Below are positions 6,659-58,810 of a DNA stretch of 64,000 bases, in pieces. Source of the stretch: a virus; IMG/VR virus record IMGVR_UViG_3300048597_000118, positions 37,170 through 101,169 of that record; one strand, given 5' to 3'. The number at the start of each line of letters is the position of its first letter. Position 1 is the first letter of the stretch. Both the position numbers and the translations under genes were made by a program. The notes beneath the pieces were generated by a model. That model had not been told where the DNA came from and made no database searches. It saw only the letters and a list, made by a program, of their open reading frames with translations.

Positions 6659-6663
6659 AATTA

Positions 6664-12682: not shown

Positions 12683-12695
12683 AACTGATTACCAC

Positions 12696-13439: not shown

Positions 13440-14069
13440 ATGGAAAGTAACAATCCTACGTACCTATTAGCCACTTTAGACCAACTACGCTCATATCTAA
13501 CAATTACAGAGTCCTCTTTCAGTGAAGGAGCTTTCAACTGCTCTCTAATAACCCGCAACACTAAAGTAGCACCTCTTAAATTTCAAGCCCTTGAATTAGC
13601 GAAGAAATTAACCTATGAGTGGGACCAACTAAAGACTAGAGTCAACGTATATCAAACATTAACCGACTTACCGGAGTCAAAAGACTTGGCTAGTGCCGCC
13701 TGCTTTTATTACTGCCACAGTCTTATCCTTGACTCTGTGGGTTGGGCTAATTTTGTCTCAGGAAAGCTACGGTACCGCATATATGGTACCCCTTATATGC
13801 GAGAAGAATCAGAATTGTTAGACCGTAAAACCGTAGTAGGTGCAGCAGCAATATTATACGGGCTGTCCATAAATGAATATATAGGCTCCCACTACACAGT
13901 CAAAACACCAGAGGGGAAAGAACACTTCCTTCGTGGGGCAGAAAATCATTGCTCTTGTAGTAGATACTCAATAGGACCCAATGGATTCTGCGAGCATTCT
14001 GCTTTAGGTAAAGTCTATTGTGATAATAGAGCTTTGCTGGTTAATACTGGTTTAGCCTCCTTCTTTTAG
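13440..14069 (+). CDS. SWIM zinc-finger protein
   Basis: YTV...HCSC-x10-CEH SWIM-like signature near the C-terminus. Confidence 0.7.
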   Translation: MESNNPTYLLATLDQLRSYLTITESSFSEGAFNCSLITRNTKVAPLKFQALELAKKLTYEWDQLKTRVNVYQTLTDLPESKDLASAACFYYCHSLILDSVGWANFVSGKLRYRIYGTPYMREESELLDRKTVVGAAAILYGLSINEYIGSHYTVKTPEGKEHFLRGAENHCSCSRYSIGPNGFCEHSALGKVYCDNRALLVNTGLASFF

Positions 14070-41604: not shown

Positions 41605-42024
41605 CGCCCATTATCCTTACCTTTGTTTCCCCCATTGTCTTATTGCTTACCTTAGACGAGGCACAGAGTTTAGGAAGGAGACTACTAGATAAAGCTGAAG
41701 AGTATAGGAATAAAGGGGACTAACAACGGCTGTAATCATTAATAAGGCAATAGCTGGGAATTTAAGTCGTAATAATACTAGTCGCTGTAGAGTGACGGAA
41801 CAGGCGGGAAATGGTATATAGCCGGAAATTCAATTCGCATATGGGTGCAAAAATATACGCGCCAGAAAATGGAATGGTATATGTCTAGTGTGCCTAAGCC
41901 CCCTACGCCTGAGTGAGAAATTCCTGGCACTAGGGTCACTTAAGCCCGTTACCTTAACCTCCCTTGCTTATGGCTTGGGAGGTTATTTCATGACCTTCCT
42001 AACCGGTTCGACCGGTGTTTAATT

Positions 42025-42177
42025 ATGAAAATCTTACTAAAAGGTTGCTTAGCTTTCATACTTCTCTCCGGCTTGACCGGAGGGGCTGAATCCGCCCTAG
42101 TGGCAGCGAAAAATGTGCCTCGTAGGAGGCACTGCCACTGCTGCCATGGCAGTGGCGGGGGTAATAAGCCCCCGTGA
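42025..42177 (+). CDS. Small secreted Cys/His-rich peptide (50 aa)
   Basis: MKILLKGCLAFILLSGLTGGAESA-LVAAKNVPRRRHCHCCHGSGGGNKPP; first gene after the first promoter cassette. Confidence 0.55.
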   Translation: MKILLKGCLAFILLSGLTGGAESALVAAKNVPRRRHCHCCHGSGGGNKPP

Positions 42178-42267
42178 ATAACTAATCTTTAACCCCCTAT
42201 ATGCCCCCATATAGGGGGGTTATTTCATGATCAACTTTACCGCTAGGACCACTAGCAGGAGATCATT

Positions 42268-42690
42268 ATGTCCGTAGTTAAGCAAGCTGTAAGTATCCTG
42301 CTCCTAGCAGGCTCCCGTGTGGGAGAGGGTGAGAGGGTGACAGCTAGGCTGTTTATCCACTACCTGGGTGGTAGTGGAGATGCAGTGACCCTGCATAACG
42401 ATGCTCTTACTGAGCACTGTACCTCTGCCCCCAGGACATGGGACAAAGGGTACAAGTGGGGTGTTATAGCGCCCGGAGCCTACGTTAATGCTGTAGGAGG
42501 TTATACATGTTATCCAGATGGTACTGGATATGACTTGTATGACTTCGAATCTTGGGAGTTAGACCCTAAGATATGCAGCAGGCTATATAAGGTTAATACC
42601 TTGTATAAGCTAAGAATGCTGCCCCCTAACCTGGGGCGGTGCATAACCAGCACTGGTGTAGGTAAGCCCTACACCATCCAAATCAAGTAA
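42268..42690 (+). CDS. Hypothetical early protein
   Basis: AGGAG RBS; inside a promoter/terminator cassette. Confidence 0.7.
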   Translation: MSVVKQAVSILLLAGSRVGEGERVTARLFIHYLGGSGDAVTLHNDALTEHCTSAPRTWDKGYKWGVIAPGAYVNAVGGYTCYPDGTGYDLYDFESWELDPKICSRLYKVNTLYKLRMLPPNLGRCITSTGVGKPYTIQIK

Positions 42691-42776
42691 AACGTAACCC
42701 CCTCTATATGCCCCCTTGGTGTATAGAGGGGGTTATTTCATGTAAACTATAGCCGGTACTACCGGCAGGAGGCTAT

Positions 42777-43346
42777 ATAGCCAAACGGAGGAAACAGAAA
42801 TTCGATGATGATCCGTCTGGGTATTACCAGACTATGGATTATACAGAAACTTTCTGTGTGCCTATGGCTATAGGCAGTCACGCATCCCCTTTTGGGGAGA
42901 TAGTAATCGGCAAAGATTACTGTCCTGGACACGACATACCTGAAAGGTATGATGTGTCTAGTTTTGTCGTGCTGCTTTCGGGGGTATGGTTCCAGACCCA
43001 GGAACATTCTGACTGGGTTTGGGACTTGTATTGCCGCAAATATTTCTACTCTGGTGAAGACCAAGTAGATTTTGTGGTAATGCAGGATGGGCAGGTTTTA
43101 ATTCTCGTTAATGGGAGTTATGACTATGCTCACTTGCCCCCTGCTAAAGGATTCTCTATTATCCGTAAACTAAAACGGATATTTAAAGAGTTCTTAGGCA
43201 GTAAGCCAACCCATCTACAGCTTTATGCTGTGCCTTATGGCAATGATGGGCTCGAAGACTACAGAGTTAAAGTATTTAGCTCTGTGGGCTTTAACTCCTC
43301 TTCTGAAGATAAACAGAAGATGGTCTTCGAGGGTACTGACTGCTAG
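42777..43346 (+). CDS. Hypothetical early protein (ATA in frame after AGGAGG; first ATG at 42834)
   Basis: Open frame from ATA 42777, 4 nt after AGGAGG; cassette context. Confidence 0.6.
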   Translation: MAKRRKQKFDDDPSGYYQTMDYTETFCVPMAIGSHASPFGEIVIGKDYCPGHDIPERYDVSSFVVLLSGVWFQTQEHSDWVWDLYCRKYFYSGEDQVDFVVMQDGQVLILVNGSYDYAHLPPAKGFSIIRKLKRIFKEFLGSKPTHLQLYAVPYGNDGLEDYRVKVFSSVGFNSSSEDKQKMVFEGTDC

Positions 43347-43558
43347 GAAAGACTAGCGGTGCGTCTTTATCCGCACGCGGAAGCATAGATAAAGCTCTGA
43401 AATAACCCGCCCCACCGCTTCATGGTGGGTTATTTCATGGGTGTAACAACCGGTATGTAAAGCTAGCAGGCGCGCATATCTCTTTAGTAATCCACGCTCC
43501 CTAACAAGGTCTAGTCAACCGAGGTAAAGGAGAAGTCTGCTCCAAGGAGGTGATTTAC

Positions 43559-44149
43559 ATGACCTTCAAGTGCTTTTTAAGGACCGCAAGGGACCTTGAT
43601 TCCAGCTTGTTCATTAGTGATGGGCTGAAACTCAAGTATACCTTGGGTCCTGATAAAGGACGCCCCGCTGAAGAAAAAGCTCTACTACTAGTAGAAACTT
43701 TCTTCGACGGTGTAGAACAGGCTTTTCTCGCAAGGAAAGGCTATGTACTTGACGTCAGCTTCAAAGTTGACCTAGTTGTCAAGTTCTATGAGCAAAAAGT
43801 GAAGGATGAAGAGGGTAAAACCATCAAAGTCCTAAACAAAAGAGCTCTAGGCTTACAAGTCAAGTCTTCTGCGTTCGGGGCGCTAAAGCACGAAGACCTG
43901 CGGTTCTCAAGAGATTGGGAATTCGGGTTTCCAGAATGCTTAACTTTGGCTATGGGTACCAATATGGTTTCCCAATTAGTCAGGTTATTGCGGAGGAAGC
44001 CGAATAAGCGGTTCTTCGATGCTTTGGAACTAGCCCGTAACTTGGGTGGAGAAACTTGGCCAGAAGGCATACCGGGTATGAAAGACCTGGTTGTGCTGGG
44101 ATTGGCTAAGCCTACCAAACAAGGCTACGTGGTGCGTCCCACCCGTTAA
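43559..44149 (+). CDS. PD-(D/E)xK-type nuclease-like protein
   Basis: E..A...DVSFKVDLVV...LGLQVKSS motif; AAGGAGG RBS before ATG 43559. Confidence 0.6.
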   Translation: MTFKCFLRTARDLDSSLFISDGLKLKYTLGPDKGRPAEEKALLLVETFFDGVEQAFLARKGYVLDVSFKVDLVVKFYEQKVKDEEGKTIKVLNKRALGLQVKSSAFGALKHEDLRFSRDWEFGFPECLTLAMGTNMVSQLVRLLRRKPNKRFFDALELARNLGGETWPEGIPGMKDLVVLGLAKPTKQGYVVRPTR

Positions 44150-44281
44150 TGATATGACGAAATCATTAACAAATAAAAGCCCCCGTTTATGTAGATGAAT
44201 GAACGCTACAGACCCCCTCGCATAAGCTTGGGGGCTTTTTTCTCCGTGAAATTACCGGCGGTACAACCGCCAGGAGACAAC

Positions 44282-44572
44282 ATGGAAGGTTGTGTTAAGT
44301 ATTTAGTCTCTGCTTCTAAAAGCGTAAACCTAGAACTAGAGGGTGAAATTCCCCTAGATTTAGGGTATCGCTGGGAAGTGGGCGTGACAGATTGGGAAGT
44401 TCTATCTGAGTTAACCGGAGAGCCGGTTAAAGTTCTCCAAAACATCTTGTCAGAGATGACTGGAGACGATCAAGAGGCCGCATACGCCTGGTTAGACGCC
44501 GGGCAGACCTTTGACTGGTTATTAGGGGGTGATGTCCCCTACTTCGTGGAAAAAGAGCTGTATAAGCTCTAA
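44282..44572 (+). CDS. Small acidic early protein
   Basis: AGGAG RBS then ATG 44282; the track's longer start runs through the terminator/promoter. Confidence 0.65.
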   Translation: MEGCVKYLVSASKSVNLELEGEIPLDLGYRWEVGVTDWEVLSELTGEPVKVLQNILSEMTGDDQEAAYAWLDAGQTFDWLLGGDVPYFVEKELYKL

Positions 44573-44659
44573 TCCACCCCAATTAAGTAAAACAAAAAGC
44601 CCCCAAATTAATGGGGGCTTTTTTCTTGTTCTATCTGACCGGTACGACCGGTGAAGATT

Positions 44660-44830
44660 ATGCAAGTCATCAGCATTCGTATTTCTAAGCTATCTATCAC
44701 CTTGGGCGTAACACCTGAGGTAGTCACTCAGTGGTTATACGCGGAGTTTATTCGAGTAGAAGAACCTGCCCTTCGGGGTGGGGATAAAGAAGACGAATTT
44801 CCCACTAGTGGGAAATCTTCCCGCTGGTAA
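44660..44830 (+). CDS. Small early protein (56 aa)
   Basis: MQVISIRISKLSITLGVTPEVVTQWL..., directly after the promoter hairpin. Confidence 0.5.
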   Translation: MQVISIRISKLSITLGVTPEVVTQWLYAEFIRVEEPALRGGDKEDEFPTSGKSSRW

Positions 44831-44943
44831 TTAACTAAATAACCCTCAACAAGAGGAGGCAAGCTAATCAAACCTGGATTGAAAGCCAGTAAGGAATAGC
44901 GCGCCCCCGAGTTGGGGGTTTTTTACCGATTAGAATACCGCAG

Positions 44944-45759
44944 TTAAAAATTAAGTTTGGCTTTGTCTCCATACACGATTATGGCGTAGGAGTCATACAC
45001 TCTTGCAGCTTCTTCAGGAGTAGGATAAGTACCTATAGGGCGTGAGACTCCATTGACGCTAATCTGTGCTCTCCAACCTGATTTATGCTTAACGACGCCT
45101 CTATAAGTAGTATTGACAGGCTCGTCATCTACACTAAGCAGATTAGTACGTATAAAATTGTTTATCTGCTGAGTAGATAACCGTGCGCTGTCTAATCGTT
45201 GAAATAATCGTAGTGCTTTATCTACTTCTGTTTCAGCATATAAAAGGTTATCTACTGAGGGTATTGGGACAGACCGTACCTCTGAGACAGCTAAACACTC
45301 TGGAGCTTGTTTAATCTTACTAAATACAGAGCGGACTCCTATAGAACTAAATAAGGCATCAAGCCTCTTGGCACGCTCACTTGTCTCTCTTGCATCGTAG
45401 GCGTAGTACTTAACTAAAGAAGAAACTACTACCTCAGGCAGCATATAATTCTGATGGGTTCGTGTAGTGGCGGCCGTCGTAAGTTGTGGTTGGTTCTTAT
45501 AATCAAAGCCAGCTATAGGTTTTAACGAATCAGGTAAATCTTCAGGCCGCCAGTCAGGTAACCGCCGCAGCAAACCTTTTGCTAGCCCGTTTGCTTGTTT
45601 GCGCCCATCTATAAGAGATGAATGGTGCATATTAAGTAGACGGCTGGCTCCGCGTATAGAGCAGAAATAGTTGTTATCTCTTACTTCTAGCTCTGCATTA
45701 AGAAGCTGTCCTAATTCCGCATAGGACACTTCTGGTGGACATGGTGTTATTTGTGCCAT
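44944..45759 (-). CDS. AP2-domain DNA-binding protein
   Basis: C-terminal YRGV...WRAQI...IGTYPTPEEAARVYD..A...YGDKAKLNF is a canonical AP2 domain. Confidence 0.85.
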   Translation of the reverse strand: MAQITPCPPEVSYAELGQLLNAELEVRDNNYFCSIRGASRLLNMHHSSLIDGRKQANGLAKGLLRRLPDWRPEDLPDSLKPIAGFDYKNQPQLTTAATTRTHQNYMLPEVVVSSLVKYYAYDARETSERAKRLDALFSSIGVRSVFSKIKQAPECLAVSEVRSVPIPSVDNLLYAETEVDKALRLFQRLDSARLSTQQINNFIRTNLLSVDDEPVNTTYRGVVKHKSGWRAQISVNGVSRPIGTYPTPEEAARVYDSYAIIVYGDKAKLNF

Positions 45760-45997
45760 GATAGACCTTAGATATACAACAAGCTAATTATAACGTTATA
45801 AGCAGCACCAGCGGGCACTCCTATGTATACAAGGAGTGTTCTTTTTATGGCTATTTGAGCCCTATTTTTATGACCAAGACAACCGCTAGGTACTGAGTGC
45901 AAGACGGCTGGTAAGTATATGGTGCGACTCCATACGCCTTTATCAAATGGACTGTCAAGGTTATAAACATCGTCCCAGTACGACTGGGCAAAACAGA

Positions 45998-46519
45998 ATG
46001 TCTTTCTTAAACGCGATTAAAGAAGCTCTTTCCACCAAAACCGTAAAAGTAGAGGAAAAGGAGACTGCTAAAACCCGGACCCAAAAGTTCGTAGGTGAGT
46101 TCAAGGAGGTGGCTCAAACCCATCCCGCTGAACTACTTGATGCAGCCCAAAAACTGCATGGTATTGAAGTTATTAAAGACAAAGCCACAGAGAAGGCTGC
46201 CCAAATTGCTGAAGCTCGCAAAGCTAAAGAACGTTTGGTGTTTGCGGTAGACTCTGTCATAGAACAAATCGGTGTGGTAGCCGAAGAAATTCTGTGTCTT
46301 GAGGACGCCATTCTGGCTGATCAAGAGGCTATTAAGGTAGCCGAAGACGCATCGAAAGATGTGTTAGACGCTATGTCCAAAATGGACCCTGCTACTGTGT
46401 TAGCTGCTGCCCGTGCAGAACGAGCTAAAAAAGCTAACAAAAAGCAAGAGCCTGTAGTAAAACAAACTACTACCACTAAAGGCAATGGGCAACCAGCGCC
46501 TAAAGTGAACGTCGTCTAA
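45998..46519 (+). CDS. Coiled-coil early protein, paralogue A
   Basis: MSFLNAIK start shared with 46963; Ala/Lys/Glu-rich helices. Confidence 0.75.
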   Translation: MSFLNAIKEALSTKTVKVEEKETAKTRTQKFVGEFKEVAQTHPAELLDAAQKLHGIEVIKDKATEKAAQIAEARKAKERLVFAVDSVIEQIGVVAEEILCLEDAILADQEAIKVAEDASKDVLDAMSKMDPATVLAAARAERAKKANKKQEPVVKQTTTTKGNGQPAPKVNVV

Positions 46520-46596
46520 ATAAACAAGGGGAGTTTCCACCAGGATTCTCCCCTGTTTTATTGACGTTTACAGCCGGTACAACCGGGGAGGTCAAG

Positions 46597-46893
46597 GTGA
46601 GTTTCTCCAACCACCAACAGCGGTTTATCCGCAAAGCTCGGGCTACTGTCAAGTATGCCCAGTCCTTGGGGTGCCCCTCAGCCCCTATTGGACATGTCGA
46701 CTTCAGTAATGGGTCGGCGGGCTATGCAGTATGTAATCAGGTGATTCATTCCCTAACATACTGTCAAAACTACTTGACACGGGAGTTGACCCGTAACCCA
46801 ACCCTGGAGCAAGCTCAGGAGGTGCGTAAGTGCCTGAATGCTATAGCAACAACTATCAGACTCGGGACTAAATCAGTTTTGAGTCGAGATTAA
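46597..46893 (+). CDS. Hypothetical early protein
   Basis: GGAGG then in-frame GTG 46597 after the promoter hairpin. Confidence 0.6.
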   Translation: MSFSNHQQRFIRKARATVKYAQSLGCPSAPIGHVDFSNGSAGYAVCNQVIHSLTYCQNYLTRELTRNPTLEQAQEVRKCLNAIATTIRLGTKSVLSRD

Positions 46894-46962
46894 GAATTCC
46901 CGGGAATATTACTTCCCGGGTTTTTTTCTTGATCTATTTCACCGGTACGACCGGCTAGAATC

Positions 46963-47424
46963 ATGTCTTTTCTAAATGCTATCAAGTCTGTTTTAACAAC
47001 CGAAGCCCCCAAGGCTGAGGTTCAAGACAATGCATTGACTCGTACCCAAACTTTCGTGAAAGAGTTTTCGGACGTGGCTGACCACCACAAACCCGAACTT
47101 TCTGTAGCGGCGCAAAAGTTACACGGTATTGAAGTAATAAAAGACCGTGCATCTGCTAAAGCAAAACAAATCTCTGAGGACCGTAAGGCCAAAGAGCGTC
47201 TCGTGTTTGCTTTAGATAGTGTTGTAAAACAAATTGGTGTGGTTGCCGAAGAAGTTTTAACCCTAGAGGATGCTATTTTGGCAGACCAAGAGGCTGCCGC
47301 TATTGCTAAGGACGCGTCGAAAGACGTATTAGATACGTTAGCTAAACTTGATGCAGCCACCGTGCTTAAAGCTGCTCGCGCAGAACGGGCTAAAAAGGCG
47401 GCTGAAGCCAAAAAAGTCGTATAG
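46963..47424 (+). CDS. Coiled-coil early protein, paralogue B
   Basis: Shares AAQKLHGIEVIKD, RKAKERLVFA, QIGVVAEE, LEDAILADQEA and AARAERAKKA with paralogue A. Confidence 0.8.
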   Translation: MSFLNAIKSVLTTEAPKAEVQDNALTRTQTFVKEFSDVADHHKPELSVAAQKLHGIEVIKDRASAKAKQISEDRKAKERLVFALDSVVKQIGVVAEEVLTLEDAILADQEAAAIAKDASKDVLDTLAKLDAATVLKAARAERAKKAAEAKKVV

Positions 47425-47678
47425 ACTTTAATTAAATAGAGGGGTGTAAGCCCCCTCTTTTTATGTGGGTGACAACCGCTACTTCCTATCTCTGAGACCC
47501 TATGGGCAGACTCGTGTATCGAGCCAGGGTTGGAAGTAGCGCATTACCCACACGACAGTATTCAATACTGTCAGCCCGCCACAGCCGGAGTCAGACAACC
47601 GCACCTCGATACCCTTACCCCTACCTGGGCATATTTTTAACACCCTAACAGCCGATAAGCTCGGCAGGAGTTAAATTT

Positions 47679-47981
47679 ATGTTATTTGAAATGACTGTAG
47701 GCGCACATCAGACATACGAGAGATTCCAGACTAATCCTGGTGTCCCAGTAGTTATGTTGGTATTGGCCGAAGGGAGAGAGGTAAAAGTGCTTCTCTCCCA
47801 CTCTGGGACTTGGATTCGTCCAGGTAGGGAGAAAACAGTAGATTACTATGTCTGCTGCCATCCAGAGCGATTGGAGCCACGACTAAGGGAAAAACACCCC
47901 TTCCCAGACCATATAGGTCCTGTCCGTGGACGGGTATACGCGAAAGATAAAAAACTTTGGTGGGAGGTGACTCCCGCATAG
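47679..47981 (+). CDS. Hypothetical early protein
   Basis: AGGAG RBS; cassette context. Confidence 0.65.
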   Translation: MLFEMTVGAHQTYERFQTNPGVPVVMLVLAEGREVKVLLSHSGTWIRPGREKTVDYYVCCHPERLEPRLREKHPFPDHIGPVRGRVYAKDKKLWWEVTPA

Positions 47982-48228
47982 ATCAACTAACCACTTATGC
48001 CCCTCGGTATAGGTGGTTTTTTACTGTCATCTATTTTGCATAGTTACATAAAAGCAGAGGGCTGCATTCCTGACCCGGCAAGGGTTCTAAGGTTTTGATT
48101 AAGTGCTCACTCGAACAGCATTAAAGAAGCAAACTACATAGAAGGCTCTAATTTGAGCCCTATTTTATTGACTGTCTTTACCGGTAGTCATCACTATATC
48201 CGGCGTCTACAAGGCGTCGTGTTTTCGT

Positions 48229-48459
48229 ATGGACATTTTCGTTGTCTTGACTTTGTGGGTCTACGGACTTTTTGTCGTATTCTGCCTGAACGCTGTGGTA
48301 TCTGCCACAGCCCGGGCAATTTATTCCGTTTATGGGGTGACAGCCCAAGACATTCTCGTATGGGGGATTCAGAACCCCCTGTGGTTTTACAACCTGCTTG
48401 ATCAGGTAGCCCCCCAAGCTACCCAACAACACAATTACTTCGGAGGGTTGAATGACTAA
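48229..48459 (+). CDS. Small membrane protein
   Basis: Hydrophobic N-terminus (IFVVLTLWVYGLFVVFCLNAVV); downstream of the promoter copy at 48180. Confidence 0.55.
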   Translation: MDIFVVLTLWVYGLFVVFCLNAVVSATARAIYSVYGVTAQDILVWGIQNPLWFYNLLDQVAPQATQQHNYFGGLND

Positions 48460-48664
48460 TCCCAACACGGCGCCTAGCGGCGGCGCCTTACAAATAGTCG
48501 CTGGTAGTCCAGCTGGGAGGACTCAAATTAGTCCCAGTGGGTTCCAGGCAGGGTCCCATCAAAACCCTGGTCAAATCGTGTCCGTTGAGGGTGGAGCGCC
48601 TATGGCTCAGCTCTCGACGGGCAAAAGTTCACAGCCGGTCCTTACAAACAAAAACGAGGTAATT

Positions 48665-51600
48665 ATGAAAGTTAATCGACGCTTTGAATTAGGTATGTCT
48701 CTAAATAAAGAATGCCTTGATTATGTTGTCCATTTAAATCAAAAAGGCAATCCAAACTCGGAAAGCCAAAAACTGATCGATAAAGCCCGCGCTTTTCGTC
48801 GGGCAGCTCCCGTCCGGGCTGGTTTAAGTATCACATTCAGTAACACTCCTGTTGCTGGCGTTGTCATTAACCAGGAAGGCCGTGATGCTTCCGTTGCTTA
48901 TTGTGCTGCCCGCACCATTTACAAAGCTACCCGTCGGGTGGCTAATCGTGAGGCTTTCACTTTGATTAATATCCTGGGCTTGGTAACCCGCCGTCACGGC
49001 AAAGTTACTCGTAACTCTACCAAAGGATTTGGTACTGTTACTATCGTATCTTCCGGCACCTCTGCCGGTAAAACCGTGAACAACCGTAAAATCAACCAAC
49101 AGATTGCCCGTGCCCAGCGGGTATCTCGTCAGCGCCGTAATGGTCGGCGCTCCCAAGTTAGTAAAACAAGTCAGCAACGTGGTGCTGACCGTGCAGCCCG
49201 TGCTGCCAAACAGGGGGCAAAATTAGCCCGTCGTCGGGCTGCCCAGGCCTTCCTGGATGCTCAACGCAAGGCGGCAGTTATGGCTCTTGGGGTAACTCCC
49301 AAAGGGCATAAAGCCCCAGCTATGGTCCGTGGTGTACGGGTGAGCACCACCCCAATACCCACCACCCGGTCGGCTAAGTCCAGTGCCCTCCGTGGGGCAC
49401 ATGACGGTGTATATTACGTTAACGGCACTGAGGTGCCGGTGGTTAAAACAGTAGTTGCCCACCGTCAGGCAATTCTGCGTAAAGAGCGTAATGCTCTACC
49501 CTTAGCGGTACGTAACCGCCGTCTAGCGGCGGAAAACGGAACCCGGTTCCACCGGGATGCTGAGTTCGGCGCACGGCGCGCCTTGAGTCGGCACATTGTA
49601 GAAGTCCCTGTTATGCCTGTATGGCGTATGGTGCCCACTGCCCCAGCACCTGAGGTAACAGTGGCAGACTTTGAAGCCAAGGCTAAAGCCATTATGGCTG
49701 AGGCTAAAGTCAAATACGGCGCTGGTGACCTCCAGATGTCGTTAAATAGTAATTCTAGCGACCGCGATATAAAAAGCGGACTAGAAGCTCTACCGGTAGG
49801 AGACTCCATGGATAATATCGTAAAACTCGTCAGTGACCTTATGCCCACGGCTCAACCCGTAGCATCTATCCACGCTGACCACGCCTCTAATGACCGCTCC
49901 CTCGGCTATTACGTCAGCCTCTGCTGCGTATACGTCGACGGTTCCGGTCGTCAGACTATCAAAGGCAATATCAATTTGCCTATCCAAGCTCACTTCAGCA
50001 AGAAGCAATGGCCTGTCATCGGTGAACCTATGACCTCCGAAGACGCTAGCCTTAATGAGTCTTCTCTGCTTAAAGTGAGCGCCGAGCAACCTGTGCTCAA
50101 GTTCCGCACCAGTGCGGCCTACAACACAGGGAATTACACTCCTTGTGGTATGTGGCTATCTAAAGCCTGGGAGCGACCATATCCATTGAGGAAGAAATAC
50201 CCTGAAATCTCCCCCGAGATTTCGGTTATGCTGGATGGCAAAATGACGGTAGCTAACCTAGCCAAACCTGCTGAAGGCAAAGACAATATCACCCTTCAAC
50301 GGGCTATCGTCGACGCCCGTCTAGAGGTATGGAACGCCATCATGGGCGCCACCACTGAGGTCAAAGCCGGTGGCTGTACCGTTAAAGGCGGACTCGGTGC
50401 CAAATTACAACCCGGTCGTAACTGGGTGGTAGTTGTTGCTGATGTCACTGCGATCAACGGTGCCTCTAAAGAGAAAGGCGGCTTTGACATGTTGTTCAAC
50501 GTTACCCGTCCTGATGGTGTGGTATCCGTTGAGGGCTCCCTAGCCAAAGAAGACCTATACGGTCATGGTCGGGACTTTGCCTATGAGCGCATGGCAGCCC
50601 AGTCCATTGAGGTGCTCTATGTGCCTAACCTCAGTGATATTTATGCTGAGAAAGTGTTGGGTCCTTGGCACCCCAGCATCTCTGAAGGCTTAGCCCGTGG
50701 TTTCTACGGTGATTTACCTGAGTTAGCTGTAGACACCAAGAGCGGTAAGTTCAAGTATGCCGCTGCGTCTAAGGGCATAGCAGACCCCAAACGGGTTCGG
50801 CTATGTGACTTACTTGACTGGTCCTATGAGGCTTACGTCATGATTCAGTGCTGTCGGGAGAATCTACTGAATCAACGTGGACTACCCAGTGGTTCACGGG
50901 TAGTTACCAAACCAGCCGCACCGGTGGTCAAAGCAAAAGCAGCGCCCACTGTAACTACTGAGCCCACCAAACCTGTAGATGTAGCCCCTGTTATTGCTAG
51001 CCTCTTGGAAGCAGTGACCGCCGCACCTGCCCCTGCCCCGGCTCAACAAGTAGCCATAGTAGAACCAGAAGTAGAGGTTAAAGAACCTACTTCGCCACCC
51101 AAAGTAGAGGTGGTAGCAACGAAACTCCCTGAGCGCCCTGTAGTGCCTACCGTAGAACCTAACCTACAAGGTTACGCCGGTGCGCTCAGCCAATACCTTA
51201 ACCACATGGAAGGTATGTGGGTTAACCGCGAGTTAGCAAATATCACTGATATCAGTGTGTATTGCCAGGAACACGTCCAAGCGTGGGCTAACCTTGACAA
51301 GACTACAGGATTCAACGCTGAAGGTGTACAAGCCCGCACCAATGGTGTATCTGGTGCTTTTGGCGTTATTCGTTATCTAGCTGATGTCACCAAGACTGAA
51401 GGTGATTGTAAGCCTAACCTCAGTTTCTATGGCTTTGATTGGCAGCCCGAACACGTTATGAACGTGATTGCCATTCTCCGTAGCTATGAGTCTACCAATC
51501 ACCAGGATGATTTGTGCTACTTCAAACCTGAAGCTGGTGGGTATATCTTCAGTTTCCTTGGTAAAGAATTCGCCTGGATTCCTGAACTCAACGGTGTCAT

Positions 51601-54600
51601 CGACCTACCCCGTGGTCGGATGTTCAAGAACGTCGTTATGGCGTGCTACTCAGAAGAGCTCACAGAGAATGACCAACTAGTCAAAATCTACCGTGGGGCT
51701 CAAGCTATGTCCTCTATGGGTAGCTTCATGCGTTACCTATACATGGTGGTATTGCCTGTGATGGCTCATCTACCCGCTTCGGACGACTGGTCTGCCGTGG
51801 GTGCGAACCTTAACCAGTATCTCAATAAAGATGCGGGAGTCATGTTCCCCATGTCCTCTGACAATATCCTGTCAGAGAATGCTAACTTCCGTTGGGCTGA
51901 GTCCAATAGCTGGGCTCCCATGGGTCTAGACGTAGGCTCTACAATGCCTACTCCTGTAGTCAACGTAGATAAGAAATTCGCCTTAATTAACTGCTGGGGT
52001 ATCTACGCTGACAAACTCATCAAGGCATACGCAACTAACTATAAGCAGGCGAAGTTAACCAACGCTGAGTTTGCCGAGAACTTGTTGCCCGAAGCTATGA
52101 GTCAATTGGGTATTACCTGGTCGTTCAACAAGAACGTTGGGTATTCTATGCCTAACTTTGCTATTAACTGTCTTGTATTAGCTGAGCATGCCCCCGCTAT
52201 TTACGAACTAGTTAAAGCCCAGTTCGTCATAGATATGGGCGGTAGTAAAGCGGTAGATGAGTTCCTAGCCGCCTCCAAGTTCGAATCGTTAGATTTGTTC
52301 TTGCGCGGATGCGTAGTGAATAGTAACGGTAAAGTTGCTAAAGGAACTAAGCGTCAGCTATTGCGGGCACCTAACTCAGTGCAGTCTGGTAGCTATATCA
52401 ACTGTGATCGCAAACCTAAATTGGCTAAGATGCTAGCGGCTGGTCGTGGTGTCAAACCAGTTGATACCTTGTGGGCTGGTATGTTACCGGAGAACTTCTA
52501 CGCTGTAGGTGCCGGACACAAATTCAGCACTCAACCTGAGCCTATCACTGGCACAGCTATCCGTGTAGCTCTTGGTCTAACGGCTGTTGGTCCTGCTGGT
52601 GTAGTTGCTTGGATTGGTGGGCCTAATCAAATGCCCCATGGCTTTGGTTCTAATATTGAGCAGTCTAACTTTGAGATTCCCCAACGGGCTATCGAAGTTC
52701 AGCCTGGTGTTGGCTTTGGCGCCGATGATATCCAGCTAGTCCGCCCTGAACTGGCTGTAGACTTCCGTCAGCCTGAATGCGTGTTGGCTGATGTTGAATT
52801 GGTGACTGAAGTTCATCGGGTGCGGGGTATTGAATATTACTACTTCAAACCTCAAACTGCTGTGTATGTACATGGCAATGGTGGGTCTGTGGTGTGTAAT
52901 GTATTCACCAATGATGAACTTGCTCCTAGCAAACCGTTTGCCTATGAGAGTAATAACGGCGACGGCATCTTGGAATGGGTACGTGTCCACGTAGCACCAG
53001 AGATTACCGGTAAGAACCTAGAGGTGGAATTCAAAGTCACCACTATGGAACGGCAGGCTAAGATTCGTAGCTCTGTGGCTAAGGCTAACCTAATGCCCGT
53101 TAAGTCTTCGTTCTTGAAGTTGAACGGTGTGGCTGGGAAACTGGTTGACGCTGTATATCTGCAAGACGCCATGAAAATTGACGTTGATGGGTGTCTTATC
53201 AGTGTTATTGGTGTCACGTTGGTGCTTAACCCTGACTGTAATGACCCTGAGTTCTTAGCCATGGTTGAATTGGCTAAGGATATCAACGAGATGGTTGAAG
53301 GGCGCCGCCACTTGGATTACTTGGTAGAAGACCACGTGTCTATGGTTGCTCAACCTAAGTACACCGAACTGCAAACTCGGTTCTACAACTACTTCAAGCG
53401 TGAAAACGTTTGGACAATGTGGGAAGAACTAGAGCATGGTGACTTTGGCTATGCCATTGACCGCCTATACACCGATATGTCCAATGAAGGGTTGGACTCT
53501 TGGCGTGCTGTTACTGATGCCTTAGAAGCACGTGAGTTGGTAATGAACCTAGCGGCCGATGTAACTGATGAGTATACCTACAAATGCTTCACCAATGATA
53601 AAGACAATGTCTTTGTCTTGTTCATTAATGAAGCCGGGCGTGTAGCTAAAGTAGCTCAACGGTCCACTATGCTGGTTGGTCGCAATAATTGCCCCATCTA
53701 TGATGTGGTGCTCTATGAAGCGGCTACTACTCGCCAGGGTATCAACAATAATACCTCGGGTCAGATGGATGTCTGCATGCGTTCCTTGCGTGCTATGACT
53801 GATGCTTGGGGTATTGGTAATGATGGGTTGGCTAAAGACCTTATCCGTCGCCAAGGTATTTCTGGTAAGACTAACGCTATGTGGCGTGCCAAAATGCTAC
53901 ACCTTAGCGCCCATTGTGGTCTCAGCAAAGCCATTGATGGTCGTCAAGTCATCAAACTAGGCGAATGGAAAGAGGCAGATAAAGGGCAAGCCACCTGGGT
54001 ACCTAACTCTGAAGTAGTGGCTACCATCAAGTCCATCTTGGGCAATGCTGATGTGTCTAACGTGTCTAACTTTGGTGGGCTATGTGAAGCCCTTAAAGGT
54101 TATATCTTCACTGTTGATGCGTCTCGTAAAGAGTATAAAGTAGACGAGGAGAGCGGTGAAGTCTATGCCGTGTCTAAGTCTATTGAGGTATGGACTCCGT
54201 TCTTGTATTACCTCAACGGACGTAGTGCTGAAGATAATAGCCATAGCACCGCCAGTGGTCTATTCCAGGCTTACTTGGCCAAAGCATTATCCATTAACCC
54301 TGACGCCCGTAGTCTTGGCATCATTGCCAATCAACTATGTGGTCGTATGGACTCCTGGGCATCTTCTGAAGGTGTCCGTAAGTTTATCTCTGGTGGTGAG
54401 GTATTCGGCGGTAAGGTTATCGCTATGCCTAATCTACCTACTGGGGTGATGTTACTCTATGAGGGTGATGACCAATGGGCTAATGCCCGCCGCGTGGCTA
54501 AACATTATGGCTTAGACCTACGCAATGTACCCACTTGGGCTGACTATAAAGCCTTTGGTGAGGCGGTATGGGATATGCCTGAGCGTACCGAGGCGTTTAA

Positions 54601-57600
54601 CCATCTCACTCGTAGTCCTATTAAAGACGGTCCGGTTCAACGAGTACTTCGCATGCCCAAGTCCGTTGAAGCCTACAAGGATACGTTCTATTGCTTCAGC
54701 AATCCTTGGGTATATAACCCATTGAGTAGCAAGAACGTCTTGGCTAATCCATATCCCTATACCATTGGCGTATCTGTTATCGCCATGACTGGTGTTACTA
54801 AGGGTGACTCTGACGGTGATGGTGTGAGTGCTACGTTCTTAGTTAGCAATGTACCCGGCCTTCGTGGTTTGGTTACTGCTGAAGATAAAGCGTGGGAAAG
54901 TTGTGATAAATGTGCCGGGTTACCCGGGGCACAAGCTCGCCTGGAAGTATATCTAGGTGACCACTTGAGTGCCCCTAGTTTGGCTAAGAAAGCTAATATC
55001 TTCTTCCGTAAAGGTATGTTAGCTGTGTCCTTCAAAGACGGTGGTGTTAGTGGTAAGCATTTAGTATTAGCCGAGACCTATAACACAACCAACGTTCGCT
55101 CTTTGATTCTGCAAACTATGCAGGTCGGGGTGAGCTATAAAGTTTACCGTTTGACCGAGGCTATCACGGATATTCTCAATGGTCTTGTCAAAGGTGGTGT
55201 GTTTAAAGCAGCTGGTTTAGAAGTACCTGAGATGTTCAAGCCCTTCGTCGGTCCTCAATCCTACTATGCAGTAACTGCCTGTGCAGATATCTATGAGTAT
55301 GTATTGGGTGCTGTTGATGCGTTGGGTTGGCAACTCTGGGGTATGCTTAAATCCGTAATGGAAGCCAAGTTTGCTCCTATGTGGCACGCTCCGTTAATCC
55401 ACATAGACAAGACAGACGGCAATACAGTGGACCATAATGCTGAGGCTGAAGCCAAAGCAGTTCTGTTTCGTCAGAGTAAAGTAGCTGAGCTGACTGGAAT
55501 CCTCGGTAAGGCTGGTGTAAATACCAGTCAAGCCGACGCCATGGCTACTGCTTTCTGGTTGGCATCTTATGCTAACGGAACTGTTAAGCAACAGTCTATG
55601 TTCATGTTTGACGTTCAACGTAGTGACCGTCGGCTTGCACAGTTCATTATTGCTGCCGCCATGTTGGTCACCGAAGCAGGTCGTGCTAAATGGCATGGCT
55701 TCAATCATGGTCCTCTCAATAGCACTGCTTTGGCTAGTGACGAGAAGGTAGCTAACCATAAGAAGATGACTACAGTGACCTTAGACTACCTGACTAAAGG
55801 TGTAGCCGCCCATGATGTATGGGTTAACGCTGTATCTGAAAGCCATTGTTTGCAGTTGCTTATGGATATGGCTGACCCTGAGACTTTAGGTGACTTGGTA
55901 GTTGGTCCCCCGGCTAACACTGCTATTGATTACTTTGTCAATGCAGACTTGGTTGCCCATTATGAGTCTCAGTTGGCTGCTCGTGTTGGTGATGTCAACA
56001 TGGTCGAGATTAAAGAAACCGTGGTTGATGTGGAAGTATGTCTTGATATCTTTGTCACTGACGAAGACGAGGAGTTCGACTTAGTTGACCCTGATGCAGA
56101 TATATATGACGATTATCAACCGACTTATGACGAGGAGGAATATATGGAAATGCTCGCTAACCAGGCGATGTTGGCTCAAATGTTGGCTGCCCCCACTGCC
56201 GTAATTGAACCCACGGATAATACTCCAACTCCTCACTGTGTTGATGAGGATATGTATATCCCCGAGGAACAGACTGAAGAAGACCGGTTGGCTACTCAAC
56301 AAGTTATGGCTCAGCTGATGACTAAACCTCAGGCTGCCCCTGCTCCTGTAGTAATGCCTGCTCCTACTGAAGACCAAATCTTCTTAGCCAAACAGGCTGC
56401 TGTAGAAGCTGAGATTAGTGACCTAGAAACCCGTTTGGTTAAAGCCCAAGAGCTATTAGCTAAACAAGAAGCTCAGGCAAAAGCCCTGCGGAAGCTAGAA
56501 GACAAAAAGGCTAAATTATCGGCTAAACTAGCTGACGTTGTTGCTAAACTCAGCCCTGAGTACCTCGCCATGTTAGAAGATAATACCCAACCAGAAGAAG
56601 ACGAGGATAATGGCGGTGGCAATGTTAAGCCTGAGCCTGATGCCCCCAAACCTCCTTCTGATGACCATGGTCAGAATCTAAGCATCGATGCAGAAGTTCA
56701 GAAGGTACGCCATGATTTAGAACAGTTGGCTGCCCGTGCTCGGGATGGTGAGGTGATTGGTCGTCCTAGCCCTGAGCCTGCGCCTTCTGATGAGGATATG
56801 TATATCCCTGAAGAAGGTAATCCTGCGGAGAATATGGCGGCCTTTGCCGCCGCCGCTGCCACTTCCGTTACTGCCACTACTAACGAAGTAGTAACGGAGC
56901 CCACCTGGGCTGACTTTGTCCAAAGCATCAAATGGGAGCGTGGTGACGTATGTGAAGTCGAATACGAAGACGGCACCATCGGTTGGATGTTAGGCCAAGA
57001 GGTTATCCCTAACATAGTCAGCTCTGATTATGTAGATGGTCGCTTGTGGTTCTACCATGAGAAGCCCAACGTTCTCTTTATTGAAGATGGCTTGACCATC
57101 AATGACGTACCCGACGTTCAAGGATGGGAACTAGACCTATGTGATGACATTCGGTACGTTACTGGGTATGTAGGAGGAACTATTACTACCACCCCAGAAG
57201 CTAAAAAGGAAACTAGTGAAGTAAAATCACCGGATGACATCGTGGCTACACTAATAGAAAGTTACGCAAAAAAGTCTCAGCCCAAAAACCTTATTGAGGC
57301 TAAGACTAAAGCTCGCTCCCTTCCATGTCCACCTATAGACGATGAAGGTGCCACCGACTGCCAGAAACGCTTCTTCGAAGCCGCCTGCACCGGTGATAAC
57401 ATCTTCTTATCTGGGGAAGCTGGCACAGGGAAAACCTACGCCCTAGAGTCAATGATTAACCATTGGTTAGAACTGGGAGATAAAGTCATCGTTACCGCCA
57501 CCACTGGTCGCGCTGCTATGAACATGGGCGCCCGCTTTGATATCGAAGACTTAGCTGGCTACGGTACCTTTAACTCTGTGTTGGGTCTGGGCATCGGTTT

Positions 57601-58810
57601 TGGTGAGAAAGATGCTGAAGCCATGACTCCCTACGCTTGGAGCCAACGCATGATTAGTCGTGGTCAGAGCAACGATGAGCTAGAAGTGATGCTTAAAGGA
57701 AGTAACCAAGACCAACGAGTCCACTTCGTCTTAGACGAGGTATCTATGTTGGATGCCCGCATGCTTTGGGTTATTTGGAATATCCTTTATTACCACAACC
57801 CCTGCATTCAAGTTATCCTAGCTGGCGACGGTGACCAACTCAAGGTAATCGGTAAAGGTGCTCGGGACTTCTGGCAACGTCCTTACCTTGAAGGATGTAA
57901 CGGAACTTTAGAGACTATCATCGACAAGTTTCGCTGCATTAACCTGAAGACCAACGTAAGGCAAGCTGATGACCCTGAGTTGGCTGCTGCGTTGAAACAC
58001 CTTTCTGAAACCAATGAGATTACTGGGGTGTTACTTGAACGATTCCGTTTATGTGCAGAAGAAGGTCTAAAGCCCAGCGACGACTTAAATACGACTTATA
58101 TTCGTTATAACAACGTATCTGTTGAGCGGATTAACCGTCGTATGACCCGCGCCATGGGTACAGAAACCCGTGTATATAAAGCACAAGTAGTGGGCAATAA
58201 TGGTCCCGTCACTGTTAATAATGACCGTTATCCTGGTTGGGTATACGCCTTTAGCCCTATTGCTCCTGTGATGGAGTTTGCGGTAGGTATGCCTGTTAAG
58301 CTCCGCAAGAATCGTAAAAAAGATGGTGTGTTAGAAGCTTCTAATGGTAGCCGTGGGTTCATTACCAAGCTAGGTAAGGAGCATGTATGGGTTGAATTTG
58401 AAGATGGTAAGGAGTTAAAGATTAACTTCGAACGATTCGAAGGACCCCATGTAAACGGTAATAGCGTCGGCGCTTTCTACCAATTACCTATCCATCCTGA
58501 CTTCGCTACCACGGGGCATAGTGTCCAAGGTATGACTATCACTAACGAGGGTGTCATCTCTGTTAGTCAGGAATGGAAGTGCAAAGATAACCATAAGCAA
58601 TTTATCTTTGAAGAAGATGGCGAGCATAAGGTTTATAAGGTTGCTTTGAATGACGCCCAGTGGTTATTGGTTGCGTGTTCACGGTTCACTAAGGCTTCGG
58701 ACATTTACTTCCAGTATGATGGTCCCGAAGATTTGCATTGGCTATTCCAAGCACAAGGTAATAAAGATTTGAGCTACCGTGAGTGGCTTGCTTCTAAAGC
58801 TAAGCAATAG
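48665..58810 (+). CDS. Giant protein: putative single-chain two-barrel RNA polymerase fused to a C-terminal RecD/Pif1-like SF1B helicase
   Basis: AKIRSSVAKANL (~53057), HLTRSP (RSP at 54611), KGDSDGDG (DSDGD at 54806-54820). Helicase motifs GEAGTGKT (57413), ATTGRAA, LDEVSML, GDGDQL, NVRQ, ATTGHSVQGMT, VACSR. Start taken at ATG 48665 after GAGGT; the ORF is open from 48452. Confidence 0.75.
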   Translation: MKVNRRFELGMSLNKECLDYVVHLNQKGNPNSESQKLIDKARAFRRAAPVRAGLSITFSNTPVAGVVINQEGRDASVAYCAARTIYKATRRVANREAFTLINILGLVTRRHGKVTRNSTKGFGTVTIVSSGTSAGKTVNNRKINQQIARAQRVSRQRRNGRRSQVSKTSQQRGADRAARAAKQGAKLARRRAAQAFLDAQRKAAVMALGVTPKGHKAPAMVRGVRVSTTPIPTTRSAKSSALRGAHDGVYYVNGTEVPVVKTVVAHRQAILRKERNALPLAVRNRRLAAENGTRFHRDAEFGARRALSRHIVEVPVMPVWRMVPTAPAPEVTVADFEAKAKAIMAEAKVKYGAGDLQMSLNSNSSDRDIKSGLEALPVGDSMDNIVKLVSDLMPTAQPVASIHADHASNDRSLGYYVSLCCVYVDGSGRQTIKGNINLPIQAHFSKKQWPVIGEPMTSEDASLNESSLLKVSAEQPVLKFRTSAAYNTGNYTPCGMWLSKAWERPYPLRKKYPEISPEISVMLDGKMTVANLAKPAEGKDNITLQRAIVDARLEVWNAIMGATTEVKAGGCTVKGGLGAKLQPGRNWVVVVADVTAINGASKEKGGFDMLFNVTRPDGVVSVEGSLAKEDLYGHGRDFAYERMAAQSIEVLYVPNLSDIYAEKVLGPWHPSISEGLARGFYGDLPELAVDTKSGKFKYAAASKGIADPKRVRLCDLLDWSYEAYVMIQCCRENLLNQRGLPSGSRVVTKPAAPVVKAKAAPTVTTEPTKPVDVAPVIASLLEAVTAAPAPAPAQQVAIVEPEVEVKEPTSPPKVEVVATKLPERPVVPTVEPNLQGYAGALSQYLNHMEGMWVNRELANITDISVYCQEHVQAWANLDKTTGFNAEGVQARTNGVSGAFGVIRYLADVTKTEGDCKPNLSFYGFDWQPEHVMNVIAILRSYESTNHQDDLCYFKPEAGGYIFSFLGKEFAWIPELNGVIDLPRGRMFKNVVMACYSEELTENDQLVKIYRGAQAMSSMGSFMRYLYMVVLPVMAHLPASDDWSAVGANLNQYLNKDAGVMFPMSSDNILSENANFRWAESNSWAPMGLDVGSTMPTPVVNVDKKFALINCWGIYADKLIKAYATNYKQAKLTNAEFAENLLPEAMSQLGITWSFNKNVGYSMPNFAINCLVLAEHAPAIYELVKAQFVIDMGGSKAVDEFLAASKFESLDLFLRGCVVNSNGKVAKGTKRQLLRAPNSVQSGSYINCDRKPKLAKMLAAGRGVKPVDTLWAGMLPENFYAVGAGHKFSTQPEPITGTAIRVALGLTAVGPAGVVAWIGGPNQMPHGFGSNIEQSNFEIPQRAIEVQPGVGFGADDIQLVRPELAVDFRQPECVLADVELVTEVHRVRGIEYYYFKPQTAVYVHGNGGSVVCNVFTNDELAPSKPFAYESNNGDGILEWVRVHVAPEITGKNLEVEFKVTTMERQAKIRSSVAKANLMPVKSSFLKLNGVAGKLVDAVYLQDAMKIDVDGCLISVIGVTLVLNPDCNDPEFLAMVELAKDINEMVEGRRHLDYLVEDHVSMVAQPKYTELQTRFYNYFKRENVWTMWEELEHGDFGYAIDRLYTDMSNEGLDSWRAVTDALEARELVMNLAADVTDEYTYKCFTNDKDNVFVLFINEAGRVAKVAQRSTMLVGRNNCPIYDVVLYEAATTRQGINNNTSGQMDVCMRSLRAMTDAWGIGNDGLAKDLIRRQGISGKTNAMWRAKMLHLSAHCGLSKAIDGRQVIKLGEWKEADKGQATWVPNSEVVATIKSILGNADVSNVSNFGGLCEALKGYIFTVDASRKEYKVDEESGEVYAVSKSIEVWTPFLYYLNGRSAEDNSHSTASGLFQAYLAKALSINPDARSLGIIANQLCGRMDSWASSEGVRKFISGGEVFGGKVIAMPNLPTGVMLLYEGDDQWANARRVAKHYGLDLRNVPTWADYKAFGEAVWDMPERTEAFNHLTRSPIKDGPVQRVLRMPKSVEAYKDTFYCFSNPWVYNPLSSKNVLANPYPYTIGVSVIAMTGVTKGDSDGDGVSATFLVSNVPGLRGLVTAEDKAWESCDKCAGLPGAQARLEVYLGDHLSAPSLAKKANIFFRKGMLAVSFKDGGVSGKHLVLAETYNTTNVRSLILQTMQVGVSYKVYRLTEAITDILNGLVKGGVFKAAGLEVPEMFKPFVGPQSYYAVTACADIYEYVLGAVDALGWQLWGMLKSVMEAKFAPMWHAPLIHIDKTDGNTVDHNAEAEAKAVLFRQSKVAELTGILGKAGVNTSQADAMATAFWLASYANGTVKQQSMFMFDVQRSDRRLAQFIIAAAMLVTEAGRAKWHGFNHGPLNSTALASDEKVANHKKMTTVTLDYLTKGVAAHDVWVNAVSESHCLQLLMDMADPETLGDLVVGPPANTAIDYFVNADLVAHYESQLAARVGDVNMVEIKETVVDVEVCLDIFVTDEDEEFDLVDPDADIYDDYQPTYDEEEYMEMLANQAMLAQMLAAPTAVIEPTDNTPTPHCVDEDMYIPEEQTEEDRLATQQVMAQLMTKPQAAPAPVVMPAPTEDQIFLAKQAAVEAEISDLETRLVKAQELLAKQEAQAKALRKLEDKKAKLSAKLADVVAKLSPEYLAMLEDNTQPEEDEDNGGGNVKPEPDAPKPPSDDHGQNLSIDAEVQKVRHDLEQLAARARDGEVIGRPSPEPAPSDEDMYIPEEGNPAENMAAFAAAAATSVTATTNEVVTEPTWADFVQSIKWERGDVCEVEYEDGTIGWMLGQEVIPNIVSSDYVDGRLWFYHEKPNVLFIEDGLTINDVPDVQGWELDLCDDIRYVTGYVGGTITTTPEAKKETSEVKSPDDIVATLIESYAKKSQPKNLIEAKTKARSLPCPPIDDEGATDCQKRFFEAACTGDNIFLSGEAGTGKTYALESMINHWLELGDKVIVTATTGRAAMNMGARFDIEDLAGYGTFNSVLGLGIGFGEKDAEAMTPYAWSQRMISRGQSNDELEVMLKGSNQDQRVHFVLDEVSMLDARMLWVIWNILYYHNPCIQVILAGDGDQLKVIGKGARDFWQRPYLEGCNGTLETIIDKFRCINLKTNVRQADDPELAAALKHLSETNEITGVLLERFRLCAEEGLKPSDDLNTTYIRYNNVSVERINRRMTRAMGTETRVYKAQVVGNNGPVTVNNDRYPGWVYAFSPIAPVMEFAVGMPVKLRKNRKKDGVLEASNGSRGFITKLGKEHVWVEFEDGKELKINFERFEGPHVNGNSVGAFYQLPIHPDFATTGHSVQGMTITNEGVISVSQEWKCKDNHKQFIFEEDGEHKVYKVALNDAQWLLVACSRFTKASDIYFQYDGPEDLHWLFQAQGNKDLSYREWLASKAKQ

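Follow-up and report, generated by a model that had tools for sequence, protein, structure and literature searches.

An array of putative single-gene terminator-promoter cassettes with a non-sigma70 motif in an uncultivated myovirus-type phage

We describe an array of short, repeated intergenic elements in a 64-kb stretch of phage DNA ('the window'), which is the last 64 kb of IMG/VR record IMGVR_UViG_3300048597_000118 (G000; 101,169 bases, linear, about 68% complete). The record belongs to an uncultivated phage of the myovirus type (tail sheath, major head protein, protease and portal are encoded) with a genome size of about 205 kb, and the array occupies a 6.3-kb block of small plus-strand open reading frames (ORFs), bounded by minus-strand genes on one side and by a giant gene for a 3452-residue protein on the other. 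With moderate confidence, and from sequence comparison only, we read the elements as single-gene terminator-promoter cassettes that serve a phage-specified, non-sigma70 mode of transcription and that are also recombination joints of the kind known as promoter early stem-loops (PeSLs). In the scheme that we propose, a GC-rich hairpin and T-run at each joint would end the upstream single-gene unit, and the same T-run would run into a lineage-specific block (T-rich tract, pyrimidine-purine or Y-R step, aCCtAgACA, RCCGST) that would act as a compact non-sigma70 promoter from which the next orphan gene is transcribed afresh; the final copy would serve a 76-residue ORF together with the giant gene.

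The core of the block, TG-N9-RCCGST, occurs 18 times on both strands of the window, against 5.46 ± 2.45 times in shuffled sequence (none of 100 shuffles reached 18). Ten of these matches are plus-strand array sites, with TG at 41991, 42228, 42741, 43438, 44627, 45871, 46562, 46930, 47464 and 48169; the other eight comprise one overlap artefact, caused at 44636 by the second arm of a hairpin, and seven scattered chance matches. The extended pattern TTTYWTG-N9-RCCGST, with at most one mismatch allowed, returns exactly the ten array sites (expected, 0.99 ± 0.98). A 28-column position weight matrix, scored leave-one-out, gives them 17.7-27.5 bits, against 14.0 bits for the best position elsewhere in the 101,169-base record and maxima of 8-16 bits in shuffled sequence. 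All ten sites are intergenic, share the orientation of the genes and lie directly 3' of a GC hairpin and T-run. These counts confirm the ten copies that a first-pass annotation of the window had noted, all of them co-oriented within 41991-48185; its view that the T-run of the preceding terminator forms the 5' part of the motif is likewise supported at all ten. Two extra copies are degenerate (44235-44271 and 47630-47665).

The motif is found across a family of phages. The closest relative, G001 (205,544 bases, 91% complete), is syntenic, with core genes at 70-80% nucleotide identity and the giant protein at 76% amino-acid identity; some ten motif sites lie in its orthologous 5.5-kb block upstream of the giant gene, and none in the other 200 kb. 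In the more distant G002 (216 kb, 96% complete; major capsid protein, 74%), seven of seven pattern matches fall in a 5-kb block upstream of the giant gene (controls, 0). Diverged versions stand in the same place in G003, L036 and L037, whose giant-protein cores are 22-31% identical, and in G005 (major capsid protein, 59%) the synteny and the hairpin with T-run and G are kept, whereas the downstream box is absent. The family consensus is a GC hairpin, a T-run, a Y-R step (TG, TA, CG or CA), about nine nucleotides reading aCCtAgACA, and RCCGST. The first-pass annotation had called the nine-base spacers unrelated, which this comparison contradicts: a consensus ACC.A.ACA, weak in G000, is strong in the relatives, and the G002 spacer is almost invariant (CCCTAGACA). 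At the 'TG' position of the relatives' sites, read by eye and not tabulated by script, the G is always a purine and the preceding base a pyrimidine; two variant sites, at 47651 of the window and at 24380 of G001, fit this Y-R rule after a one-base shift. A related box, ACARCCG, is strand- and array-specific: 10 of its 16 forward-strand copies in G000, and none of the reverse-strand copies, lie inside the array, as do 9 of 17 forward-strand copies in G001. When IMG/VR was scanned for the exact motif, more than one copy was found only in G001; 14 single matches had no hairpin context and were at chance level. No array sequence matched INPHARED phages by blastn, and a search by k-mer enrichment for a second promoter motif in the other intergenic regions of G001 yielded A-rich words only.

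Terminators abound and sigma70 signals do not. Terminator-like sites number 32, more than four-fold above the 7.0 ± 2.7 of shuffled sequence, and one stands directly upstream of nearly every motif. Sigma70-like hexamer pairs number 6, against 10.8 ± 3.1 in shuffles, with none at any site on the plus strand, in keeping with the earlier statement that the motif is not a sigma70 consensus. Sigma54 and extracytoplasmic-function promoters were also considered and rejected: their spacings do not fit. We hold it unlikely that the host core polymerase reads these sites with a sigma70-family factor (the host's or an RpoD-like factor of the phage), be it through a -10-only element, TATTTY, or through RCCGSTA as a sigma28-like -10 element. 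TATTTT or TATTTC is present at several sites, RCCGSTA has five of seven fixed bases in common with GCCGATA, one site is GCCGATAA, and a sigma factor of about 335 residues is conserved in G001, G002, G003 and G005. However, a -10 hexamer 16-18 bp from a -35-like element is absent at the array sites, the would-be -35 place is occupied by a variable GC hairpin, and at two of the best sites (44627 and 46930) the T-rich block is without any A. A sigma28-type start inside or after the leader hairpin described below would also conflict with that hairpin's G.U-tolerant covariation and with the Shine-Dalgarno (SD) sequence overlapping its 3' arm. The link to the sigma28 -10 box that the first-pass annotation had drawn does not hold up: GCCGATAA at 47651 is a single case (1 of 12 sites), its orthologue in G001 is ACCGATAC, and the TAAA of the sigma28 (FliA) form TAAA-N15-GCCGATAA is missing 15 nucleotides upstream, so that the resemblance reads as a one-site coincidence.

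The phage sigma factor itself is a complete RpoD-like member of the sigma70 family, with regions 1.2, 2, 3 and 4; it is encoded in G001 (L002:1-861, minus strand), G002 (L050:401-1408, minus strand), G003 (L051:354-1355, plus strand) and G005 (C1:7750-9294), where the frame of 649 residues may reflect an insertion. Among NCBIfam models the cyanobacterial RpoD type matches it best, at a score below cut-off, and a host search against GTDB genomes found no close homologue (29% to a Methylobacter metagenome-assembled genome). A factor of this type would be expected to read canonical -35/-10 promoters, which is a further point against its use at the array. Between the giant-gene region and the sigma gene, G001 carries an IS605-type OrfB/TnpB gene (L002:2990-4270, minus strand).

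The cassettes and the features among them are listed here in window coordinates.

41958-42007, plus strand: cassette 1, with terminator hairpin (41958-41982), T-run/TG (TG at 41991) and ACCGGT box.
42002-42016, plus strand: leader hairpin of cassette 1, ACCGGT-tcg-ACCGGT, 8 nucleotides 5' of the ATG of a 50-residue ORF (42025-42177).
42193-42244, plus strand: cassette 2, with terminator hairpin, GTTATTTCATG, N9 and ACCGCT; would drive ORF 42268-42690.
42710-42766, plus strand: cassette 3, with terminator, motif (TG at 42741) and hairpin GCCGGT-act-ACCGGC, with AGGAGG immediately after it; would drive ORF 42834-43346.
43411-43454, plus strand: cassette 4, with terminator and motif (TG at 43438), without a simple hairpin; a leader of about 100 nucleotides precedes ORF 43550-44149.
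44215-44271, plus strand: degenerate cassette, with terminator, T-run, hairpin ACCGGCGGT-aca-ACCGCC and AGGAG; would drive ORF 44273-44572.
44594-44652, plus strand: cassette 5, with bidirectional terminator, motif (TG at 44627) and hairpin ACCGGT-acg-ACCGGT; would drive the ORF at about 44661-44830.
44944-45759, minus strand: HNH endonuclease gene, which interrupts the array on the opposite strand, is absent from G001 and is probably a homing-type insertion.
45862-45887, plus strand: cassette 6, with weak hairpin and motif (TG at 45871); would drive ORF 45947/45999-46519. Its 5' leader (45866-45939) is 87% identical to G001.
46528-46587, plus strand: cassette 7, with terminator, motif (TG at 46562) and hairpin CCGGT-aca-ACCGG overlapping the SD sequence GGGGAGG; would drive ORF 46598-46893.
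46899-46955, plus strand: cassette 8, with terminator, motif (TG at 46930) and hairpin CCGGT-acg-ACCGG; would drive ORF 46963-47424, a paralogue of ORF 45947-46519.
47438-47480, plus strand: cassette 9, with terminator and motif (TG at 47464); the next 190 or so nucleotides are without a convincing gene.
47548-47676, plus strand: conserved non-coding stretch, 82% identical to G001; would drive ORF 47679-47981.
48144-48185, plus strand: cassette 10, with small hairpin and motif (TG at 48169); would drive the 76-residue ORF 48229-48459 and the overlapping giant gene.
48452-58810, plus strand: giant gene for the 3452-residue protein (RxP...GDxDGD centrally, helicase at the C-terminus), with the last cassette upstream.

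The non-coding stretch at 47548-47676 contains, besides a hairpin (GACAGTATTCAATACTGTC), a variant of the motif that lacks the TG (T-run at 47630, GCCGAT-aag-CTCGGC at 47651-47665, then AGGAG) and two ACARCCG boxes that stand alone; despite the 82% identity of the stretch, the genes downstream of it are unrelated between G000 and G001. The putative promoter at 47464 may give rise to a non-coding RNA of about 190 nucleotides. None of the ten cassette ORFs scanned matched Pfam or PHROG, an Rfam scan of the array and its relatives gave only sub-threshold, terminator-like matches, and transfer RNA (tRNA) scans were negative.

RCCGST is more than a box: at 6-7 of 12 sites in G000 and 6 of 10 in G001 it is the 5' arm of a hairpin with 5-8 bp and a loop of 3-5 nucleotides. 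A hairpin starting at the R is present at 12-13 of these 22 sites, whereas for RCCGST hexamers genome-wide the figure is about 11%, and about 40% of the sites keep the motif without such a hairpin. The arms co-vary (5'/3': ACCGGT/ACCGGT, GCCGGT/ACCGGC, GCCGCT/AGCGGT and GGCGG/CCGCC). Across the twelve hairpin sites, which were pre-selected for hairpin formation, both sides have changed in four of five pairs; covariation scores 0.60 there, whereas shuffles give 0.167 ± 0.059 and slid controls fall far below the observed value. A tandem direct repeat of RCCGST was rejected as a description: the 3' arms are reverse complements. Five pairs in G001 are G.T and would be C.A mismatches if read on the other strand, and about eight sites have AGGAG or GGAGG just behind the 3' arm or overlapping it; because of these two features we place the hairpin in the mRNA leader. 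Furthermore, the nine bases from the W of WTG onward pair with downstream sequence (summed energy -77.4 kcal/mol, against -43.7 ± 7.0 in shuffles, of which 0 of 200 reach it; the sites are partly paralogues or orthologues and hence not independent), and this excess suggests that those nine bases are transcribed. In our scheme RCCGST would be part of the transcript, the 5' arm of a leader hairpin set directly against the ribosome-binding site, where it probably stabilises the message or tunes translation.

The same G.T pairs and SD positions disfavour a template-strand hairpin of the N4 type. That the sites are N4-type promoters (a DNA hairpin on the template strand, 5-7 bp with a 3-nucleotide loop, used by a virion RNA polymerase that starts about 11 nucleotides past the loop) strikes us as very improbable. 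Stem and loop do have suitable sizes, most triloop sites show a C in the middle of the loop on the coding strand and hence a G on the template, and next to the array lies a gene for a giant protein of some 3450 residues. Set against this, the predicted start would lie inside or after the SD sequence at 42228, 42741 and 46562 and elsewhere only 2-5 nucleotides before the start codon, and the sites without a hairpin keep the motif all the same. Nor did PHROG or Pfam detect a T7/N4-like polymerase domain in the giant proteins; a genome search with PF00940 was negative too, albeit without a positive control.

The transcribed hairpin could also be accommodated without promoters: a long, leaky transcript would run through the array, and each block would be an endonuclease processing site with a protective 5' hairpin that sets translation, like the RNase III sites between T7 early genes. 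The folding of the hairpins on the mRNA strand beside the SD sequence, the pairing of the leader with downstream sequence beyond the shuffle level and the strand specificity of the conserved block would all agree with such processing. We nevertheless give it little credence, for strong GC hairpins with T-runs stand before nearly every copy and would stop most polymerases; one copy follows the opposite-strand HNH gene, where an upstream sense transcript is not expected; a leading promoter of some other type was not found ahead of the array; and the fixed Y-R step after a T-rich tract fits known phage start sites.

Those start sites suggest where transcription from the putative promoters may begin. 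The non-virion polymerase of phiKZ starts at the G of TATG (PMC4666361), and gp96 of P23-45 at the A shared by the end of TTATTCYTTTA and the start of ATG (supplement of PMC10770324); by analogy, the Y-R step of the array appears to match the start sites of sigma-independent two-barrel phage polymerases, and transcription may start at the purine of 'TG'. It could as well begin at the R of RCCGST, immediately 3' of the conserved ACA, in which case the hairpin would be exactly 5'-terminal.

We hypothesize that the block is read by a phage-specified enzyme, for which the candidate is the giant RxP...GDxDGD-helicase protein, either delivered with the virion or made early. G000 encodes three giant proteins, of at least 4659, 5173 and 3452 residues. 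The 3452-residue protein passes the published [RK]xP-x20-100-DxDxD filter (RSP...DSDGD), its GDxDGD and RxP vary little or not at all among 15 homologues, and its C-terminus is a Dda/Pif1-like superfamily 1B (SF1B) helicase. Its central part has 28 homologues among 1.84 billion cluster representatives, the well-matched ones all being giant proteins; no relatives were found through its N-terminus. The 5173-residue protein has DYDGD but no [RK]xP 20-100 residues upstream and fails the filter, as does the protein of at least 4659 residues. (The latter is encoded before the window, at 1-13978 of G000 on the minus strand, and adjoins structural genes; its counterpart in G001, at 88772-107116, has 6114 residues.) No homology to P23-45 gp96 was detected for the 5173- and 3452-residue proteins (BLASTP E values above 1), and no beta-prime-like domain (Pfam RNA_pol_Rpb1_2) was detected. 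The first-pass annotation had ascribed the motif to one of two phage RNA polymerases or to an alternative sigma factor. An alternative sigma is possible, in the form of the family's own RpoD-like factor; two phage polymerases are not established, as only the 3452-residue protein passes the filter and no polymerase fold was recovered for it.

Several observations weigh against the reading of the array as promoters of a phage-specified polymerase. The case for the 3452-residue protein as an RNA polymerase comes down to a short signature. Its AlphaFold2 model is poor (predicted local distance difference test score, 60.5) and has no Foldseek match at E <= 0.001; a helical hairpin was all that VIA-wide matched; the alignment by hhalign with residues 1-1200 of P23-45 gp96 has a probability of 0.05%; a PDB profile search recovers the helicase only; and the ESM Atlas offered nothing usable. 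The family's complete RpoD-like sigma implies that the polymerase core of the host comes into play at some point. The most distant relative, G005, retains just the hairpin, the T-run and the G, and a T-run with a following G could be nothing beyond a terminator. The pre-selection of the covariation sites and the kinship among the sites of the pairing test count on the same side.

The joints between the cassettes also differ from the genes that they separate. Nucleotide matches between the G000 and G001 blocks are short and lie at the junctions (82-87% identity), and the ORFs are diverged or unrelated. Two cassette pairs stand in swapped order in the two phages, G001 is without two ORFs and the HNH gene present in G000, and each phage has a paralogue pair of its own. 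The suggestion of the first-pass annotation that one-gene modules shuffle, to be checked by comparing cassette order among relatives, is thus borne out: cassettes have been swapped, gained and lost, and conservation is higher at the junctions than in the ORFs. We infer that the joints double as points of homologous recombination: being repeated and conserved, they would account for the gain, loss and reordering of cassettes.

Other structures occur in the leaders. Just past the last motif copy, at 48201-48226, the leader has a hairpin (CGGCGTCTACAAGGCGTCG) with a T-rich tract behind it, a feature that G001 shares and that could serve as an attenuator in front of the 76-residue ORF and its giant neighbour. 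A small hairpin with the loop TGCGACT (GGGGTGCGACTCCCC) recurs in the 5' leaders of coiled-coil-like paralogues (45947-46519, 46963-47424 and their relatives); it lies at 45890-45945 in the window, at 25780-25720 and 25040-24990 in G001, and in G002 (X2 14850-14870). Several leader hairpins of G002 and G003 have a conserved pyrimidine-rich loop, cTTcTTTaCC (L014 980-1020 and 1850-1890; L015 1210-1240 and 3520-3550). At L016:612-672 (minus strand) of G002, the transcript immediately after one motif copy would open with a tRNA-like mini-structure, in which an acceptor-like stem of 7 bp (GCCGGUA/UACCGGC) is combined with a T-arm containing GGUUCGAGUCC; ARAGORN calls no tRNA there, and the folding z-score is only -1.2. 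Elsewhere in G001, the ribonucleotide reductase small subunit and the ATP-dependent DNA ligase contain one intein each (L007:13703-16165 and L009:11496-13766, both minus strand), that of the ligase with a LAGLIDADG endonuclease.

A bolder proposal, which we put forward as a tentative and rather doubtful one, is that the motif is the promoter of an RNA polymerase of the two-barrel, single-chain kind, uncharacterised so far and joined to an SF1B helicase in the 3452-residue protein, and that the array represents the pre-early genes of jumbo phages that form a new family and may be cyanophages. If this proposal is true, T-rich/Y-R initiation would be a common rule of sigma-independent phage polymerases (P23-45, phiKZ), and terminator, promoter and 5'-leader hairpin would be compacted in one mobile module of about 60 nucleotides. 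So far, only a few cultured phages have yielded promoters that are read by sigma-independent RNA polymerases of their own; a sharply defined, family-wide motif in uncultivated phages of about 200 kb would offer a handle for assigning genes to temporal classes, for testing the giant RxP...GDxDGD-helicase protein as a polymerase and for orthogonal expression parts.

Among characterised systems, the pre-early region of P23-45 is a close parallel: it consists of small genes, the polymerase gene among them, and in front of each stands a GC hairpin with T-run, then the T-rich promoter (PMC10770324). Both arrays combine these elements with a start purine, a putative one in the array described here (TTATTTCA|TG here, TTATTCYTTTA|TG in P23-45), include a polymerase-like gene and are without sigma70 motifs. 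They differ in that P23-45 transcripts are leaderless, the ATG being the start codon, whereas here a leader of 20-130 nucleotides carries the RCCGST hairpin and an SD sequence; in that the P23-45 promoter stands apart from the terminator T-run, which here is shared; and in that gp96 is a virion RNA polymerase fused to the tape measure, whereas the 5173-residue protein here fails the signature. The late promoters of phiKZ (PMC4666361) resemble the array in having a very short T/A-rich motif that overlaps the start (in the array, the putative start), and phiKZ also needs downstream sequence for activity; in contrast, they have neither a conserved downstream box nor a fusion to a terminator, and they are served by a split multisubunit polymerase, of which Pfam RNA_pol_Rpb1_2 detects none here. 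Promoters of the N4 virion polymerase likewise pair a small hairpin with a 3-nucleotide loop with a promoter-like motif, in a phage that encodes a giant protein of about 3500 residues, but the hairpin here is on the coding strand or RNA, in the leader, and optional.

For the organisation of the block, the nearest likeness is to the PeSLs of T4-type phages (PMC2839356, PMC4122927), in which a stem-loop terminator and a promoter motif form a composite element between single orphan genes of a hyperplastic region, and in which, as here, junctions are better conserved than genes and genes are gained, lost and reordered between relatives. PeSL promoters have the sigma70 consensus and use the host polymerase, whereas the array has no sigma70 -35/-10 pair; the PeSL stem-loop lies between or over the hexamers, whereas the one here is upstream of the motif, with a second, transcribed hairpin following it; and the phage is not T4-like. 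If our reading is right, the PeSL idea of regulatory joints as recombination points for orphan genes would extend beyond T4-like phages and sigma70 promoters. Phage-specific promoter arrays and PeSL-like cassettes are kinds already known; what differs from T4-type PeSLs here is the non-sigma70 motif.

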